This document shows, piece by piece, positions 1,828-24,560 of a stretch of DNA of 48,419 bases. The notes beneath the pieces were generated by a model, which saw only the letters and a list, made by a program, of their open reading frames with translations, made no database searches and was not told the DNA's origin. The stretch is from a bacterium (GTDB lineage: Bacteria > Patescibacteriota > Minisyncoccia > Ryanbacterales > GWA2-47-10b): NCBI GenBank assembly GCA_027624915.1, contig JAQBTR010000005.1, forward strand, positions 1-48,419, written 5' to 3'. The position numbers and the translations under genes are program-made. Position 1 is the first letter of the stretch. Each line of letters starts with the position of its first letter.

Positions 1828-2031
1828 CTAAATGTGGTTATCGCGATGTTTTGAGAGCCACGACACTACAGCATATACGAGATAAAAACTATAGAAACTG
1901 AGTGCTGGTCCAAAAACTATTGGAGATATTCCACTCCTCCATTCAACTCCATCTGGTAGGGCGAAATAATGAACATATAAAGTAACGGCAAATATCGCCA
2001 AGTGAACAAAAATCATTCTATACTTGCTCAT
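1828..2031 (-). CDS. Small two-TM membrane protein
   Basis: 67 aa with two hydrophobic segments; TACTAT -10 element 7 nt before ATG. Confidence 0.6.
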   Translation of the reverse strand: MSKYRMIFVHLAIFAVTLYVHYFALPDGVEWRSGISPIVFGPALSFYSFYLVYAVVSWLSKHRDNHI

Positions 2032-2129
2032 ACTTTAAATAGTATCAGAAAGTTATATCAAAACCTATTGGGGTCGGCAACTCGAGGACGTTCGAACCTG
2101 TTTTGTATAGATACCCCACCCCTAGTTCA

Positions 2130-2633
2130 CTATTTCGGACCCAAATCAACTGGAACTTTATTACTAACACAGTAATTAGGGTCATCGCACTGACAGCCCA
2201 ATTGTAAGCCATCTAAATCTTGCCCTACGTGCGTTCCATAGTAGTAATCAGAATCTAGTTTCTGTAAGCTCGCTTTTAATACGTAAGAGCCCCCATTACT
2301 ATCAGAAGAGTATTCATATTGAGACCACCCACTATCTGATAGTGGGTCATCAAAACCAACTGCTAAGCCTCCAAGAACACCAACGTCTGAGCAATCCGTG
2401 GTGATTGGATAGTTTCCATTTTCCTCGTGATAAATTTCCAAGGATATCTGTAGGTTTCGCAAGTCTGTAGTTCGTTTTTTGTTTATAAATTCTGGACCCT
2501 CGTGTCCGTGTCTAAAGACTTTTTGTGTATTAGCTAAAATAAAGCCTGCACCAATAACAATAATAAACGTCACAGCCATTGCCAACATTATCTGCCTTGG
2601 TGTTCCAATATATTTCCACAAGAAACTTAACAT
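2130..2633 (-). CDS. Type IV pilin/GspG-like protein
   Basis: N-terminal TM; KRTTDLRNLQISLEIYHEENGNYP; DPL...YEY..S...SYVLKASL; C-terminal Cys. Confidence 0.75.
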   Translation of the reverse strand: MLSFLWKYIGTPRQIMLAMAVTFIIVIGAGFILANTQKVFRHGHEGPEFINKKRTTDLRNLQISLEIYHEENGNYPITTDCSDVGVLGGLAVGFDDPLSDSGWSQYEYSSDSNGGSYVLKASLQKLDSDYYYGTHVGQDLDGLQLGCQCDDPNYCVSNKVPVDLGPK

Positions 2634-2669
2634 ACCCCCATCTTAAAAGTGATTGTTACTTTTTACCAG

Positions 2670-2742
2670 GGTGAGTGACGGGATTCGAACCCGCGATCTT
2701 CTCTGCCACAGAGAGACGCTTTACCGCTAAGCTACACCCACC
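2670..2742 (-). tRNA. tRNA-His(GTG), encoded G-1, no CCA
   Basis: GGTGGGTGTAGCTTAGCGGTAAAGCGTCTCTCT-GTG-GCAGAGAAGATCGCGGGTTCGAATCCCGTCACTCACC. Confidence 0.95.
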
Positions 2743-2818
2743 ATATGTTAAGGGATTATATACCAAAAACCTCCTTGTATCAATATACTGCCATTAAAAA
2801 AGCCCGCGTGCTAGCGGA

Positions 2819-3826
2819 CTACTTTGACCTGGCCTTTGCTATCAATGACAGGAAAGCCATTCTTGTCATCCAACCGTTATAGACCTGGTCGTCAATGATA
2901 ATTCGATCATCTTCGAGTGGTGGAAATCTTCCGGGTATTTCGAGACCTCGTGGAAGAGGATGAGTTATGAGAGTGTCAGATTTGATTGCCTTTCTAAATT
3001 CTAATGTCGCTCCATATCTTGTTACGTATTCCTTTTCGAACTTTAGGTCTGGTTTTTTCTTGCGTCGTTCTTTTTGAAGTCTCGTAAAATACCAAACATC
3101 AACTTCGCCAGCGATTTCCTGCCAGTTATCAACTTTGATTACCTCAAGATCAAGGCGGACGGCATCAAGAATGTCTTGCGGAAGATTATAATCAGGGAAT
3201 GATACGACATAGACCCTACCACCAAAGTGACGGAGCGCAAGAATATCAGACTTGATAGTACGTGAGTGAGGTAGATCTCCCACAAACGCCCACACTAGAC
3301 CACCTGACTCAAATACCTTTCGTCGCCGTTCCCAGATAGTGTAGAGGTCCAAGAGCATTTGTGTTGGGTGCTCAATATTACCCTCACCCGCACTGATGAT
3401 AGATGTTTTGTATCCGTACGCTTCAACGGTCTCAACAGCACGACGCATTACGTTTGGCTCACTCCCCTCATGACGCAAGATACATATATCGTAATCGTAT
3501 CTAAGCGCCATCAAAATTGTATCTTCATAGCTCTCACCTTTGGCGCGCGAAGAAGTTTTTTCTGCATGCGTATTGCTTCGCCATTTACCACCAAGGAAAT
3601 CTACCGCCTCCAAAAACGAATCGTGCGTCCTGGTGGAGGGTTCATCAAAATGTAACTTCACACGATACGGACTTGAATCATCGTGTTTTAGAACCTCTCC
3701 AAGCTGACGTTTTCCAAGAGGACTCTTCATAGCTCCTTTTATATATGCTGTCTTTTCAAAGATCTCAATCAAGTCACGGTGTGTGAAGTCCCCAGCTGAT
3801 ACTATATGTCTTCTATCCCAGGGCAT
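2819..3826 (-). CDS. pyrB: Aspartate carbamoyltransferase catalytic subunit
   Basis: EPSTRT, KGES, EHPTQMLLD, VGDL, TRLQKER and HPLPR motifs. Confidence 0.9.
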   Translation of the reverse strand: MPWDRRHIVSAGDFTHRDLIEIFEKTAYIKGAMKSPLGKRQLGEVLKHDDSSPYRVKLHFDEPSTRTHDSFLEAVDFLGGKWRSNTHAEKTSSRAKGESYEDTILMALRYDYDICILRHEGSEPNVMRRAVETVEAYGYKTSIISAGEGNIEHPTQMLLDLYTIWERRRKVFESGGLVWAFVGDLPHSRTIKSDILALRHFGGRVYVVSFPDYNLPQDILDAVRLDLEVIKVDNWQEIAGEVDVWYFTRLQKERRKKKPDLKFEKEYVTRYGATLEFRKAIKSDTLITHPLPRGLEIPGRFPPLEDDRIIIDDQVYNGWMTRMAFLSLIAKARSK

Positions 3827-6036: not shown

Positions 6037-6316
6037 TCAAAAAATCACAAACCTAAGTCTGTGATTTTTTGATTGTGCGCGACTTCAAGTCTTCTATCGT
6101 TATAAACAGTCAAAAAAAGCGTGGTGTAAAACACCAGCTTTTTTGATTGTGCGCGAGAGGAGACTTGGTCACAGCTCTTGCTACGCAAGGCCGCTACCCC
6201 GCCTCCTCATGCCTACGGCATATCGTCCGGCCTTCAAGTCCCCACGCAAGCAAAGCAGTTTGCTTGCTCTCGCTTACAAATAAAAATGGCTGGCGAAAAG
6301 CCAGACGTTTTTATTT
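6037..6316 (-). repeat. Array downstream of tRNA-Leu: repeated tRNA 3'-end fragments alternating with terminator hairpins, containing a structured T-loop element
   Basis: TGTGCGCGA at 6075, 6148 and 6316; 18-nt tRNA match 6150-6167; hairpins 6037-6073, 6111-6146, 6283-6312; element 6168-6267. Confidence 0.85.
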
Positions 6317-6317
6317 G

Positions 6318-6401
6318 TGCGCGAGAGGAGACTTGAACTCCTACGGGATTACTCCCACACGCCCCTCAAGCGTGCGCGTCTACCAGTTTCGCCACCCGCG
6401 C
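6318..6401 (-). tRNA. tRNA-Leu(GAG), no CCA
   Basis: GCGCGGGTGGCGAAACTGGTAGACGCGCACGCTT-GAG-GGGCGTG, long variable arm, GGAGTTCAAGTCTCCTCTCGCGCA. Confidence 0.95.
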
Positions 6402-22482: not shown

Positions 22483-23037
22483 ATGCCTAGAGATTCACGA
22501 TCATTTTTTGAGAAATTAACCGGATCCGTTCCGGCTGATGAGTATTACGAAGAAGATACAACGGAGGAGGAGGGGCCGGTTACAAACGAGCCACCTCAAG
22601 CACACCTTGCGATGGCAACCGCAACCAAATCTAAAGTTCGCCAAATACGCAAAGTAACACCAGTAAAACAGGAGGGGCGCGAGGATGAAGCATGGCTAAC
22701 CGAAGAGGAAGGTCAGCTCACGGTAGATGTATTTCAAAAAGAAGGCAATATAATTATTCAATCAACAGTTGCTGGCGTACGACCAGATGATTTGGATGTA
22801 CAAATAACCCGCGACATGGTAACCATTCGTGGAAAACGAGAACAAGCACGAGAAACAAGTGGAGATGACTACTACTATCAAGAACTTTATTGGGGATCAT
22901 TTTCTCGCTCGATACTTCTCCCTCACGAAGTTGATGTAGATGGATCAAATGCAACATTAAAAAATGGACTTTTAACAATTACACTACCTCAACTTGATAA
23001 GAATAGAACGGAAAGACTACGAGTAAAGCACGATTAA
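22483..23037 (+). CDS. Hsp20/alpha-crystallin small heat-shock protein
   Basis: VTIRGKR, ELYWGSFSRSILLP, ATLKNGLLTITLP. Confidence 0.93.
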   Translation: MPRDSRSFFEKLTGSVPADEYYEEDTTEEEGPVTNEPPQAHLAMATATKSKVRQIRKVTPVKQEGREDEAWLTEEEGQLTVDVFQKEGNIIIQSTVAGVRPDDLDVQITRDMVTIRGKREQARETSGDDYYYQELYWGSFSRSILLPHEVDVDGSNATLKNGLLTITLPQLDKNRTERLRVKHD

Positions 23038-23073
23038 TAAAAAATATCCAGCACGTGCTGGATATTTTTTATT
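23036..23073. terminator. Perfect 38-bp palindrome, terminator after hsp20
   Basis: AATAAAAAATATCCAGCAC|GTGCTGGATATTTTTTATT. Confidence 0.8.
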
Positions 23074-23131
23074 TGTTTGTGCACTGCTCACTAAGTTCTG
23101 TGTGCAACAGGACAAATCCCCAGCATTTGCG

Positions 23132-23171
23132 AATCCGCGAATGAAAACTCAACGAGTTTTCAGCGGAATTG
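23132..23171. repeat. 40-bp dispersed palindromic repeat, copy 2
   Basis: AATCCGCGAATGAAAACTCAACGAGTTTTCAGCGGAATTG. Confidence 0.8.
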
Positions 23172-23289
23172 GTATCACTTCTCACTAAACTTGCCTATCG
23201 GCATACAAACGACCTAATTTTTGATGACCGAAGGAAATGTAAAAATGGAAATACTCTTGTGGTGCTCCTAGTATACTTAATTTAGCAAA

Positions 23290-23325
23290 TCAAAAAATCC
23301 TAGGTTTAAACCTAGGATTTTTTGA
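23290..23325 (-). terminator. Perfect 36-bp palindrome, terminator after tRNA-Phe
   Basis: TCAAAAAATCCTAGGTTT|AAACCTAGGATTTTTTGA. Confidence 0.8.
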
Positions 23326-23332
23326 GCTAAAT

Positions 23333-23407
23333 TGGTGCCGCGAGTCAGAATTGAACTGACGACACGACGCTCTTCAGGCGTCTGCTCTACCACTGAGCTA
23401 CCGCGGC
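23333..23407 (-). tRNA. tRNA-Phe(GAA) with CCA
   Basis: GCCGCGGTAGCTCAGTGGTAGAGCAGACGCCT-GAA-GAGCGTCGTGTCGTCAGTTCAATTCTGACTCGCGGCACCA. Confidence 0.95.
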
Positions 23408-23442
23408 ATTTCAATTGTCCCATGAATATAACGCAGGACTCG

Positions 23443-23592
23443 GTCACAAATAATTTTTCTAACGAAAAATTTTCTCAGCCCCGCCTCGCGGTGCTCACCT
23501 TGTTCTCCTTTCGGTCGAACAAACTCGCACAACGCTGCGGCCTTCGAGACCCTCTAATTAAGTAAAGCAGTTTACTTAATTAGAGGGTCTCG
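23443..23592 (-). mobile_element. Putative non-autonomous structured element inserted in the T-loop of a tRNA-Val copy
   Basis: Splits GCAGGACTCG|AACCTGCGACATCTTC with CTCG at both ends; shares GTCACA, CCCCGCCTC, CGGCCTTCRAG and AAAGCAGTTT blocks with 6168-6267. Confidence 0.65.
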
Positions 23593-23736
23593 AACCTGCG
23601 ACATCTTCTTAATCAGTACTTTGTGGGCGATGCAGGACTCGAACCTGCGACATCTTCGGTGTAATCGTTAAAAAGACATAACATGTCTTTTTAACTCCAG
23701 CCAACCCCCCCCACATTCTATTGCTTAAAGTCTTAG

Positions 23737-23810
23737 TGGGCGATGCAGGACTCGAACCTGCGACATCTTCGGTGTAAACGAAGCGCTCTAGCCAACTGAG
23801 CTAATCGCCC
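23737..23810 (-). tRNA. tRNA-Val(TAC), no CCA
   Basis: GGGCGATTAGCTCAGTTGGCTAGAGCGCTTCGTT-TAC-ACCGAAGATGTCGCAGGTTCGAGTCCTGCATCGCCCA. Confidence 0.95.
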
Positions 23811-24034
23811 ACTAAGACTTTAAATCTGTCTGTATGTGGGAGAGCTAATCGCCCACAAAGTACTGATTTTTTGGATGTAATCGTTGAAAAGACATGTTAT
23901 GTCTTTTCAACTCTAGCCAAACAGCTAACCGCCCACGAGACAATCGATAACACATCAAGTTTATATATTGTACATATTTTAGAAGAAAATAAAAGCGCCC
24001 AGTACAAAAACTAGGCGCGAACGAGAAGGGTCAA

Positions 24035-24358
24035 TTAGCGAACTCTCTTATATTGGCGAGGAGGTATTGAATCAGAATAACCAAGCTTTATTGCTAAAAA
24101 TTGAGCACGGGCAAGTTTGGACGTAAAGCGGCGACGTAGGTCTTTGGTGCTACCCAAGCGATCTCTAAAATTACGAAGAACCCCAAGACGCCTGCGAACA
24201 GTATCTTGGTTTGCATCCGTTATTGGAAAGCGAAAAATTGTTTCGAACTCTTTTATTTCGGCGGGTGTGAGCAAGCCTCTCCGAGGCAAAAGGGTTGAAA
24301 CAAGCGTACCTGCACCACTAGAAGTAATGAGGCCAGTAATTCGCTCTGCTATGGTCAT
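24035..24358 (-). CDS. Small highly basic hypothetical protein
   Basis: 107 aa Arg-rich; SD GGAGGTG; own promoter; downstream hairpin about 23991-24018. Confidence 0.7.
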   Translation of the reverse strand: MTIAERITGLITSSGAGTLVSTLLPRRGLLTPAEIKEFETIFRFPITDANQDTVRRRLGVLRNFRDRLGSTKDLRRRFTSKLARAQFLAIKLGYSDSIPPRQYKRVR

Positions 24359-24392
24359 GTGTCACCTCCGTGACTATGTTCTATCTGAAACT

Positions 24393-24420
24393 AGTATAGC
24401 GTAAAATCTTTATATGTCAA
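24393..24420 (-). promoter_or_regulatory. Sigma70 promoter
   Basis: TTGACA-16 nt-TATACT. Confidence 0.65.
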
Positions 24421-24560
24421 TCCCCATACTAATAATTGCATTGTTACACGAAGAAACTAGGGTTATATGAAAACTAACTACGTTTAGTAGAGAAGCCCCC
24501 AACGGTGACAATAGGCACGGCACAACAAAAATTTCTAATGCCATTATTTAGTATGGGGGA
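24421..24560. other. ~140-bp element closed by ~22-bp imperfect inverted repeats (ncRNA or MITE candidate)
   Basis: TCCCCATACTAATAATTGCATT ... AATGCCATTATTTAGTATGGGGGA. Confidence 0.55.

Follow-up and report, generated by a model that had tools for sequence, protein, structure and literature searches.

Nested tRNA-Val gene copies in a small bacterial genome and related interruptions of tRNA genes in other members of its class

Introduction

One of the closest described systems to the locus treated in this work, a stack of nested gene copies of transfer RNA (tRNA) Val(UAC), is SegB, a GIY-YIG nuclease of T4-like phages. SegB cuts within tRNA genes at the motif RAWTSGAAC, which is the T-loop on the other strand, and drives the recombination-dependent duplication and amplification of segments that contain tRNAs; genes homologous to it are enriched in the vicinity of tRNAs of many isotypes (PMC13096335). 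Interrupted tRNA genes are also described from Archaea, where introns occur at many positions and split, tri-split and permuted genes exist (PMC10714607, PMC3218864, PMC2237900). The Val stack lies at positions 23433-23936 of contig JAQBTR010000005.1 (assembly GCA_027624915.1; Patescibacteriota, Minisyncoccia), and the whole contig of 48,419 nucleotides (nt) was analysed and is called the window below. The organism is bacterial, with a transfer-messenger RNA (tmRNA) and a bacterial RNase P RNA. Short perfect hairpins inserted in structured or coding sequence form a further group of comparable elements, to which miniature inverted-repeat transposable elements (MITEs), repetitive extragenic palindromic (REP) sequences and the Rickettsia palindromic elements belong. 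We know of no description of a whole tRNA as the cargo of such small palindromic elements.

Few sequences of a cell are as conserved and essential as tRNA genes, and the bacteria considered here have some of the smallest genomes known. Here we describe the layers of the Val stack, its recurrence at other loci and in related genomes, and two families of elements found at such sites. We give a probability of roughly 55% to the reading that the stack is the fossil record of self-complementing, tRNA-targeting selfish elements akin to phage SegB.

Results

Structure of the Val stack

The window is contig C7 of a genome, G000, that comprises 31 contigs with a total of 839,310 base pairs (bp) and encodes 47 tRNAs and one tmRNA; G-numbers denote genomes, C-numbers contigs and L-numbers fetched loci. 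The tRNA genes were called with ARAGORN and Rfam (gathering threshold 29 bits). The sense strand of the stack is the minus strand, and its features are given on this strand, except for the hairpins of the outer copies and the 21-bp inverted repeat, to which no strand is assigned.

At the centre lies copy 1 (23737..23810), an intact tRNA-Val(UAC) with 71.5 bits against the Rfam tRNA model and an ARAGORN call at 23736-23810; in the genome-wide tRNA list it is the sole tRNA-Val(UAC) gene of G000. A 5' flank arm (23811..23823) and a 3' flank arm (23725..23736) add 13 bp to its acceptor stem, with the discriminator A pairing with position -1, and in full length the arms form a perfect 20-bp inverted repeat (23725-23744/23804-23823). 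The outer spacer between this unit and the copy-2 5' fragment (23824..23841) starts in sense direction with TCCCACAT and pairs with 23710-23716, and the spacer between the unit and the remainder of copy 2 (23706..23724) ends with ATGTGGGGGGG; the pairing segments are CCCACAT and ATGTGGG at 23710-23716 and 23834-23840.

Copy 1 is located inside copy 2, which is split in the D-loop. The 5' fragment of copy 2 (23842..23854) comprises tRNA nt 1-13; including 6 nt of flank, it repeats the copy-1 start in direct orientation over 19 nt with 95% identity. The remainder (23623..23705) contains tRNA nt 15-76 and a perfect 13-3-13 hairpin (23667..23695), both hairpin and closing repeat being detected by a repeat finder. 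Copy 2 matches copy 1 without a difference over 13 + 42 nt, and its remainder scores below the tRNA threshold (21.5 bits, E = 0.19, Rfam RF00005, threshold 29). Copy 2 is closed by a perfect inverted repeat of 21 bp with arms at 23611..23631 and 23848..23868.

Copy 2 in turn lies inside copy 3, which is split after the anticodon loop and gave no Rfam tRNA match at E <= 10. The 5' part of copy 3 (23871..23934; 84% to copy 2) adjoins the presumed promoter region and consists of acceptor strand, D arm, hairpin and anticodon loop. Its hairpin (23883..23911) is homologous to that of copy 2 (inverted-repeat match of 93%); the two differ by one compensated stem difference and by a loop that is reverse-complemented (AAC vs GTT). 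In the outer copies the hairpin takes the place of 5 nt of the D stem, of position 26 and of most of the anticodon-stem 5' strand, and therefore the anticodon stem cannot form; deleting the hairpin does not restore it. The 3' fragment of copy 3 (23586..23608; 20 nt at 100%) begins with the anticodon-stem 3' strand and reaches the T-loop; the acceptor 3' strand is lost. At the T-loop copy 3 carries a further insert, the T-loop element (23435..23583), identified by alignment, by covariation and with 133.2 bits by a covariance model, R1, that is described below. After it only a remnant of 10 nt (23433..23442) is left of a direct repeat of the tRNA 3' end (T-loop and T-stem 3' strand). A perfect 24-bp palindrome (23543-23566/23571-23594) is composed of the 5' hairpin of the T-loop element and the decayed 3' end of copy 3. 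Palindromes are evidently "perfected" here, because the copy-3 3' end became a perfect 24-bp mirror of the 5' part of the element.

Read in sense direction, the stack starts with the 5' part of copy 3 with its 13-3-13 hairpin, CG and the anticodon loop, followed by an 18-nt spacer, copy-2 nt 1-13, a 31-nt spacer, copy 1, a second 31-nt spacer, copy-2 nt 15-76 with the hairpin, a 15-nt spacer, the copy-3 segment from the anticodon-stem 3' strand to the T-loop, a unit of about 148 nt and the 10-nt T-arm fragment. The direct repeats within it measure 49 nt (96%), 50 nt (84%), 23 nt (three copies) and 19 nt, and the lengths of the repeats in the stack exclude a chance origin. Folding of the minus-strand RNA of 23596-23880 resulted in concentric stems with the copy-1 cloverleaf at the tip (-131.4 kcal/mol, z = -11.3), and 0 of 200 shuffles were as stable.

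This anatomy bears out all the elements that a first-pass annotation of the window had described from the letters alone: an intact tRNA at 23737-23810, closed by a stem; perfect repeats of 20 and 21 bp; the CCCACAT/ATGTGGG junction pair; copy 1 within a D-loop-split copy 2, the extent of which (23623-23705 plus 23842-23854) had been given to within a few bases; and a third copy, split by copy 2 and bearing T-loop and anticodon-arm inserts, of which we find the fragments 23871-23934 and 23586-23608. The decay of the copies rises outward, as had been noted, and judged by its sequence copy 1 appears to be the only functional one.

The tRNA-Phe(GAA) gene (23333..23407, ARAGORN and Rfam) is located 26 nt downstream of the stack and is probably co-transcribed with it; the gene order Val-Phe is also present in L002 and L019. 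On the other side, a terminator-like hairpin of the upstream gene (23995..24018, minus strand) bounds the region available for the promoter of the stack. Because this hairpin of the preceding gene lies at 24018-23995, copy 1 would be expressed from upstream of copy 3. The promoter is assumed, as the number of sigma-70-like sites in 23200-24200 was 0. A cmscan of 22800-24500 against Rfam 15 (E <= 10) yielded only tRNA and spurious microRNA-type matches and no family corresponding to the T-loop element.

Agreement with a second assembly

The stack was compared with assembled (Logan) contigs of public runs, among which run X1 holds 0.86 of the sampled words. Contigs of X1, produced by a second assembler, match 23337-23712 and 23781-24116 with 0 differences and break only at the 42-nt exact repeat; a joint that skips a layer was not found in them. 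This support is not independent, because X1 may be the source sample. Metagenome contigs contained 47 chance matches to a 17-mer from the flank of copy 2, none of which shares more than 24 nt with the stack, and the joints found in X10 and X24 are short-sided and derive from tRNAs of other organisms. The agreement between contigs is weak when taken alone, and the recurrence of the architecture at other loci is the stronger argument against an artefact.

Recurrence in G000 and in related genomes

We determined for all 47 tRNAs of G000 how far the acceptor stem continues into the flanks. The extension was 13 bp for Val(UAC), 8 bp for Asn(GUU), or 16 bp if one mismatch is allowed, and 6 bp for Lys(UUU), and 0-1 bp for the remaining 44. 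Only these three tRNAs are extended by at least 6 bp, and all three are nested. At the tRNA-Asn(GUU) locus (C20:24683-24963) a 5' fragment is located about 150 nt upstream and a fragment from the T-arm to the 3' end 16 nt downstream of the gene. The tRNA-Lys(UUU) gene (C17:87990-88335) lies between the 5' and 3' parts of a second copy, with pieces of a third copy around them, and the outer 5' part bears a hairpin at the junction of D-arm and anticodon-arm, as in the Val stack.

In relatives, tRNA-Val loci with flanking fragments were found in at least eight genomes, and in four of them the nest is complete. Full tRNA-Val(UAC) nests are present in G018, G019, G002 and G033, flanking fragments in five genomes (G017, G015, G016, G011, G202) and plain loci in four (G020, G021, G030, G039). 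The nests of G018, G019 and G002 have a hairpin at the same place as in G000 and break at position 38/39 after the anticodon loop; the core of the hairpin is common to G000, G002 and G018. Outer copies are broken at positions 13/14, at 38/39 or 39/40, and in the T-loop. In G018, G019 and G033 the acceptor strands of the outer halves are complementary in 7/7 positions, and outer and inner tRNA differ by 2-4 compensated base pairs. Because of these fully complementary, compensated acceptor strands the outer copies are former working alleles of a different lineage and did not arise by decay of a duplicated inner tRNA.

Empty and filled states of one site were observed at the tRNA-Tyr locus of genus g5, where G008, G007 and G004 have one upstream flank in common. 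In G008 this flank abuts the intact tRNA, with tRNA-Thr 14 nt later. In G007 a small relic is present, consisting of the flank, 5 nt of the tRNA start, 28 nt and the tRNA, and in G004 the flank is followed by a two-layer stack and a GIY-YIG nuclease gene. The series of zero, one and two layers therefore exists, but at a tRNA-Tyr locus and not at the tRNA-Val locus for which it had been suggested as a check. Repeated cycles of insertion, the inference drawn when the locus was first read, fit these data: three loci of G000 are nested and relatives have zero, one or two layers. As a separate observation, the gap between tRNA-Tyr and tRNA-Thr amounts to 14 nt in G008 and to about 1.27 kb, including an open reading frame (ORF), in its congener G007 (L205, G007:C2, locus positions 1852-3126).

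The fragments show a clear polarity. Among 95 distinct tRNAs in the fetched loci, which are a biased sample, copies of the first 14 tRNA nt were located upstream on the same strand in 7 cases and downstream or antisense in 0 cases each, and copies of the tRNA 3' end were located downstream in 28, upstream in 1 and antisense in 3 cases.

The hairpins were also followed beyond the stack. The hairpin at the Asn locus on C20 has GTTAAAA...TTTTAAC ends, the same as the Val hairpin. A different hairpin, TCCGCC-N4-GGCGGA, is present in 27 copies in G015 and 16 copies in G017, compared with 0 for a reversed-pattern control; it often lies at the tip of a terminator-like hairpin or in the D-loop of a tRNA 5' fragment (e.g. 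L028-L047). The genomes G011, G038, G003, G004 and G081 have GC-rich hairpin variants of their own in tRNA fragments. The idea that palindromic elements hit tRNA genes is supported by this multi-copy hairpin family of relatives (27 and 16 copies against 0). The hairpins of the stack itself are single-copy in G000. As no other genomic copy was found, we rejected the stack hairpins as a mobile family of G000.

The T-loop element family

The covariance model R1 was built from 7 sequences and run on 151 genomes of the class. It detected the T-loop element in 62 of them, widespread across families of the class, with a length of 120-150 nt and up to 9 copies per genome, often in tandem. In 25 of 29 fetched loci a tRNA on the same strand is located just upstream and a repeat of its 3' end follows the element; the gap between tRNA and element measures 2-34 nt in 23 loci, and two tandem cases have gaps of 179 and 203 nt. 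At its end the element reads GTGAC, after which the tRNA is repeated from T-loop position 56 to the 3' end (about 20 nt). The upstream tRNAs belong to at least 12 amino-acid types. The window contains a second element (6160..6271, minus strand, 54.2 bits with model R1), which follows tRNA-Leu(GAG) (6317-6401) and is succeeded by a 19-nt repeat of the tRNA-Leu 3' end. A terminator-like hairpin precedes it.

An internal stretch of the element is complementary to the T-loop and the T-stem 3' strand of the adjacent tRNA and covaries with this tRNA; it pairs with the downstream repeat and thereby closes the element. In an alignment of 37 distinct element sequences 94.6% of the cells pair, and compensatory changes occur in 34 of 39 pairs compared with 14-22 in slid controls. 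Two pairs are conserved as G-U, and therefore the structure of the element is strand-specific and RNA-like. The T-loop element is a new structured, RNA-like family tied to tRNA 3' ends. A literature search in one library retrieved no account of it or of nested bacterial tRNA genes.

Several candidate partners were considered. The tyrosine recombinase family PF00589 gave one match per genome in five element-rich genomes, none adjoining an element. PF07282, the TnpB/IscB-type family, had 0 matches in five genomes including G000, a search that covered no other nuclease families, and a TnpB-like partner was rejected on account of this absence. A pattern scan of viral contigs gave 24 matches. The model confirmed only one of them, L084, where ordinary cell-envelope genes lie alongside, the fetched part contains no tRNA and the contig looks cellular. 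With 1 of 24 viral-contig matches real and in a cellular context, a phage origin of the element was rejected as well.

GIY-YIG genes at interrupted tRNAs in relatives

At three loci the small ORF between a tRNA 5' fragment and the intact tRNA matched the Pfam GIY-YIG domain with E = 7.5e-13 to 2.1e-15. A GIY-YIG gene lies in this position in L046, L074, L077, L158, L175, L179 and L169 and is also present at the insertions in L184 and L185. GIY-YIG ORFs of 80-140 amino acids (aa) occur in 40 of 41 relatives with 1-10 per genome, and one GIY-YIG ORF per genome is UvrC-sized. A tRNA on the same strand is located within 200 nt in 10 of 30 small GIY-YIG loci, and one on the opposite strand in 0 of 30; we estimate the chance rate of a same-strand neighbour at about 1.3% per locus (47 tRNAs in 839 kb). 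Where a tRNA follows the ORF, an exact copy of the tRNA start of 16-23 nt is found upstream of the ORF.

Two of these loci are informative in their anatomy. In L158, tRNA-Asn nt 1-22 are followed by a GC hairpin, nt 23-38 through the anticodon loop and the ORF, whose stop codon is inside the intact tRNA. In L175, a 5' pseudo-copy of tRNA-Tyr, with a hairpin in place of the anticodon arm, is followed by the ORF, the same pseudo-copy again, the intact tRNA and an element of the T-loop type with its repeat. As judged from sequence, the anatomy of both loci matches that of the outer Val copies.

The ORFs of L184 (tRNA-Ile, in an rRNA spacer) and L185 (tRNA-Val CAC) are bounded by inverted repeats of 20-22 bp and sit after nt 11 of a tRNA starting with GGGYGATTAGC; this segment and some flank are duplicated. 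A scan for the GGGYGATTAGC junction in one genome per species gave 15 matches. Two are L184 and L185 themselves, two are junctions without an ORF (L188, with 63 nt between inverted repeats before tRNA-Val(UAC), and L194), and the other 11 are in unrelated contexts. After the 19-nt direct repeat at layer 1 of the Val stack there is likewise a C-rich stretch, which is complementary to the beginning of this repeat. That layer 1 shares the logic of the ORF-bearing junctions of relatives is suggestive only, because the complementarity extends over just 5-6 nt. The outer-copy hairpin shares 8 bases with the inner ends of the L184 element; a derivation of the hairpin from a leftover pair of element ends is unsupported, with the similarity at chance level.

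A second family of small GIY-YIG genes was noticed in L160, L167, L174 and L178 (G012, G022, G037 and G007; locus positions about 1450-1800). It is bounded by a common inverted repeat of 14-16 bp (ATCCCGTTAGAGAT / ATCTCTAACGGGAT), and the host genes differ, but in each the insertion is precisely at the ATG start codon. Its right end reads ...GGGATG and therefore supplies a new start codon, which makes this family, on its sequence, another apparently "self-complementing" insertion.

Genomic context and further observations

At Rfam gathering thresholds the window contains 5 tRNAs only. The ORFs neighbouring the Val stack encode an aminoacyl-tRNA synthetase, PrsW, Hsp20, an RNase H-like protein and an exonuclease; in this housekeeping neighbourhood no mobile-element gene was found, and a 107-aa ORF of the window had no Pfam match at E <= 1. 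G000 encodes RNase III and the RNase P RNA. The reverse transcriptase and HUH Y1 transposase families (PF00078 and PF01797) had 0 matches in G000 and were rejected as drivers. PF00589 matched twice, on C12 and C23. On the latter, a contig of 3,627 bp, the tyrosine recombinase lies beside an ORF with an HxH motif, which we tentatively take to be an IS91-like rolling-circle (HUH) transposase, followed by a DNA methylase fragment. C23 may be a small mobile element; no connection between it and the tRNA nests was found.

Long perfect hairpins are in large excess in G000 (344 records compared with 23 in a shuffle). Many are of the A-tract/T-tract, terminator-like type and one sub-family is built on CCTAGG...TTAAACC; examples in the window are located at 23290-23325 and 23036-23073. 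The RNase P RNA gene (C24:13503-14037, plus strand) seems to carry about 170 nt extra, because its match measures 535 nt against a model of 367 positions; the additional sequence possibly consists of hairpin inserts. Another interrupted tRNA may lie at C8:7705-7799 (minus strand), where ARAGORN called a "tRNA-Ile(aat)" of 95 nt. Its anticodon loop holds about 18 nt of inserted sequence, and an odd tRNA-Gly(tcc) is located 19 nt upstream.

Discussion

The structure of the Val stack is real and recurrent, and is best read as nuclease- or element-driven tRNA gene duplication in a new form. If the stack records successive self-complementing elements, insertion would not be lethal to the cell, because each element brings a replacement for the tRNA sequence that it interrupts. 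Three forms of replacement were found: a whole tRNA closed by inverted-repeat flanks (the G000 stack, G018, G019, G002 and G033), a duplicated 5' segment beside a GIY-YIG gene (relatives), and a duplicated 3' segment after the T-loop element.

The order of events, the driver and the processing that we infer are as follows. Copy 3, still beside the promoter region and tRNA-Phe, would be the original resident gene, which first gained the T-loop element. A unit carrying copy 2 may then have split copy 3 after the anticodon loop, and a unit carrying copy 1 may have split copy 2 in the D-loop. The driver would be a small homing-type GIY-YIG nuclease with conserved loop-coding positions of tRNA genes as its break sites. 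If repair then copies or captures an occupied allele, the pieces of the recipient tRNA would stay outside and a complete tRNA inside, and the next round could begin in the currently intact copy or in an older one. In the nests of G000 the nuclease gene would later have decayed or been lost, leaving short spacers without an ORF. Copy 1 would be transcribed from the copy-3 promoter within a long precursor that folds into concentric stems; RNase P and the enzymes of 3' processing could free the tRNA from it, perhaps once RNase III has cut the extended stems.

Several observations weigh against this reading. The ORF-bearing elements of relatives appear tied to the ORF-less inverted-repeat cassettes by architecture and not by homology. 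In the three nests of G000 neither a GIY-YIG gene nor a remnant was detected with Pfam and tblastn, and the two small GIY-YIG genes of this genome are located away from tRNAs. Only 6 of 35 GIY-YIG ORFs have flanking inverted repeats of at least 13 bp, and just 2 of 36 loci with T-loop elements have a GIY-YIG gene nearby. Matches of 11-12 nt to the outer-copy hairpin are at chance level in 752 kb of fetched loci. The hairpins, the 24-bp palindrome and the spacers of the Val stack have no further copy in G000, and therefore there is no sign of their movement. A strict pattern for hairpin-bearing Val 5' halves was found in 4 of 401 genomes of the class, although this is an undercount, because G000 and G002 themselves were missed. 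The intact inner tRNA should itself be a target of the nuclease, and the escape of the occupied allele is not accounted for; simple homing also fails to explain the hairpins at the same position of outer copies and the perfect flank repeats. Finally, local repair errors offer a serious rival.

According to this rival no mobile element is involved: the tRNA site is fragile and highly structured, and where loop-coding positions break or forks stall at them, repair by out-of-register strand invasion and intrastrand template switching would yield partial local duplications and palindromes in successive layers. We regard this as unlikely, but several observations support it. The breakpoints coincide with stem-loop boundaries (13/14, 38/39 or 39/40, T-loop), copies 1 and 2 are identical over 13 + 42 nt with 6 nt of common flank on each side, and the flanks of the three layers look homologous. 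Perfecting of palindromes operates in this genome, as seen in the 24-bp mirror and in the hairpins with a compensated change and a flipped loop, and perfect hairpins are abundant (344 records against 23 in the shuffle). G202 has tandem 5' fragments without inverted repeats. In contrast, the inner and outer tRNAs of G018, G019 and G033 are different compensated alleles, which are hard to obtain by local duplication and neutral decay, the junctions in relatives are occupied by nuclease genes and a conserved structured element, and identical element families recur across families of the class.

A second alternative, to which we give an equally low chance, is an undescribed structure-targeting class of mobile elements, in which stem-closed cassettes enter tRNA genes at loop-coding positions. 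Such cassettes could carry a minimal GIY-YIG nuclease, a structured RNA or an entire tRNA as a replacement, and the T-loop element may then be an RNA that recognises tRNA genes or tRNAs or guides action on them. If this were true, the matryoshka locus would be the first described case of serial inside-out replacement of a tRNA gene.

It is improbable that the fragments are attachment-site debris of phages, plasmids or other elements with tyrosine integrases that integrated serially and were later deleted. The tandem arrays of the T-loop element and the exact T-loop-to-3'-end repeat of the tRNA that follows it would suit such an origin; in a classification by crossover site ascribed to Williams (2002), this repeat is reportedly the classic signature of crossover in the T-loop. 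However, the inserts measure just 18-150 nt and are conserved as such, each of five element-rich genomes has a single PF00589 recombinase that is not beside the elements, and no mobile-element gene is present in the housekeeping neighbourhood. Upstream 5' fragments and exactly complementary breakpoints without a duplicated crossover region are unlike the products of integrases, and the one real match among 24 in viral contigs lies in a cellular-looking contig. Sites of the integron or Xer type seem unlikely, as the order of core-like motifs does not fit.

Slightly less probable still is a selected function, in which the outer pieces and stems serve as a scaffold for processing, act as a decoy or belong to a split or intron-bearing tRNA system. 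The concentric fold is very stable (z = -11.3), RNase III is encoded, the outer copies of several genomes have a hairpin at the same position with a core common to G000, G002 and G018, and the T-loop element shows strand-specific covariation and conserved G-U pairs. On the other hand, the outer copies decay progressively and copy 3 is left without its acceptor 3' strand, removal of the hairpin restores no anticodon stem, the break positions of the layers vary between loci, and relatives do well with plain loci. That the nest is an artefact of assembling repeated tRNA k-mers from a metagenome is very improbable: the X1 contigs have a low depth of 3-8x, a 42-nt exact repeat lies inside the stack and none of the contigs listed spans the whole stretch, but a second assembler, probably working from the same reads, recovered the unique junctions on both sides with 0 differences, and like architecture exists at two more loci of G000 and in many genomes from other assemblies.

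Systematic breakage and replacement of tRNA genes with readable layers amounts to a natural timeline of invasions by selfish elements, and offers a route by which foreign tRNA alleles replace resident ones. It also draws attention to nucleases of only about 85 aa, for which conserved features of tRNA genes appear to be the homing target. For annotation, these findings account for the odd "pseudo-tRNA" fragments and the very stable hairpins near tRNA genes in genomes of this kind.

The view that no described system is comparable, held in the first-pass annotation, proved too strict, since the T-loop insert looks like a duplicated tRNA 3' end and the GIY-YIG genes of relatives resemble SegB. As with SegB, a GIY-YIG gene is found among or beside tRNA genes in the relatives of G000. 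In contrast to SegB, the host is a cellular genome and not a phage, and the putative nucleases of about 80-140 aa are predicted to consist of the catalytic domain only, without a DNA-binding tail. The duplications are partial and nested or flanking instead of tandem whole segments, some elements of relatives carry inverted-repeat ends, and the Val stack is without a nuclease gene. With tRNA-targeting integrative elements and their attL/attR sites the T-loop element shares the T-loop-to-3'-end repeat behind the element, the intact tRNA and the tandem arrays. It differs from them as a unit of 120-150 nt with RNA-like covariation and no recombinase, in genomes with a single tyrosine recombinase; moreover, 5' fragments and the nesting of whole tRNAs are not their product.

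The disrupted tRNA genes of Archaea resemble the stack in their interruptions of loops and stems, in complementary leaders that unite the pieces and in a proposed link between tRNA introns and mobility. Unlike the archaeal tRNAs, which are spliced into one working molecule, the interrupted copies of the Val stack are dead and an extra copy works; removal of the inserts yields no complete cloverleaf in the outer copies, no bulge-helix-bulge motif is evident, and the organism is bacterial. Hairpin inserts, multi-copy in some relatives (27 and 16 copies), are a feature in common with MITE, REP and Rickettsia palindromic types and with mitochondrial hairpin elements, and the hairpins of relatives are often located at the tips of other hairpins, as in palindromic elements. 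Unlike these, the hairpins of the Val stack are single-copy in G000 and have no known transposase partner. Compared with MITEs in particular, the stack has perfect inverted repeats of 20 and 21 bp and a 19-nt direct repeat on one side of layer 1 only, and is present in a single copy in G000.

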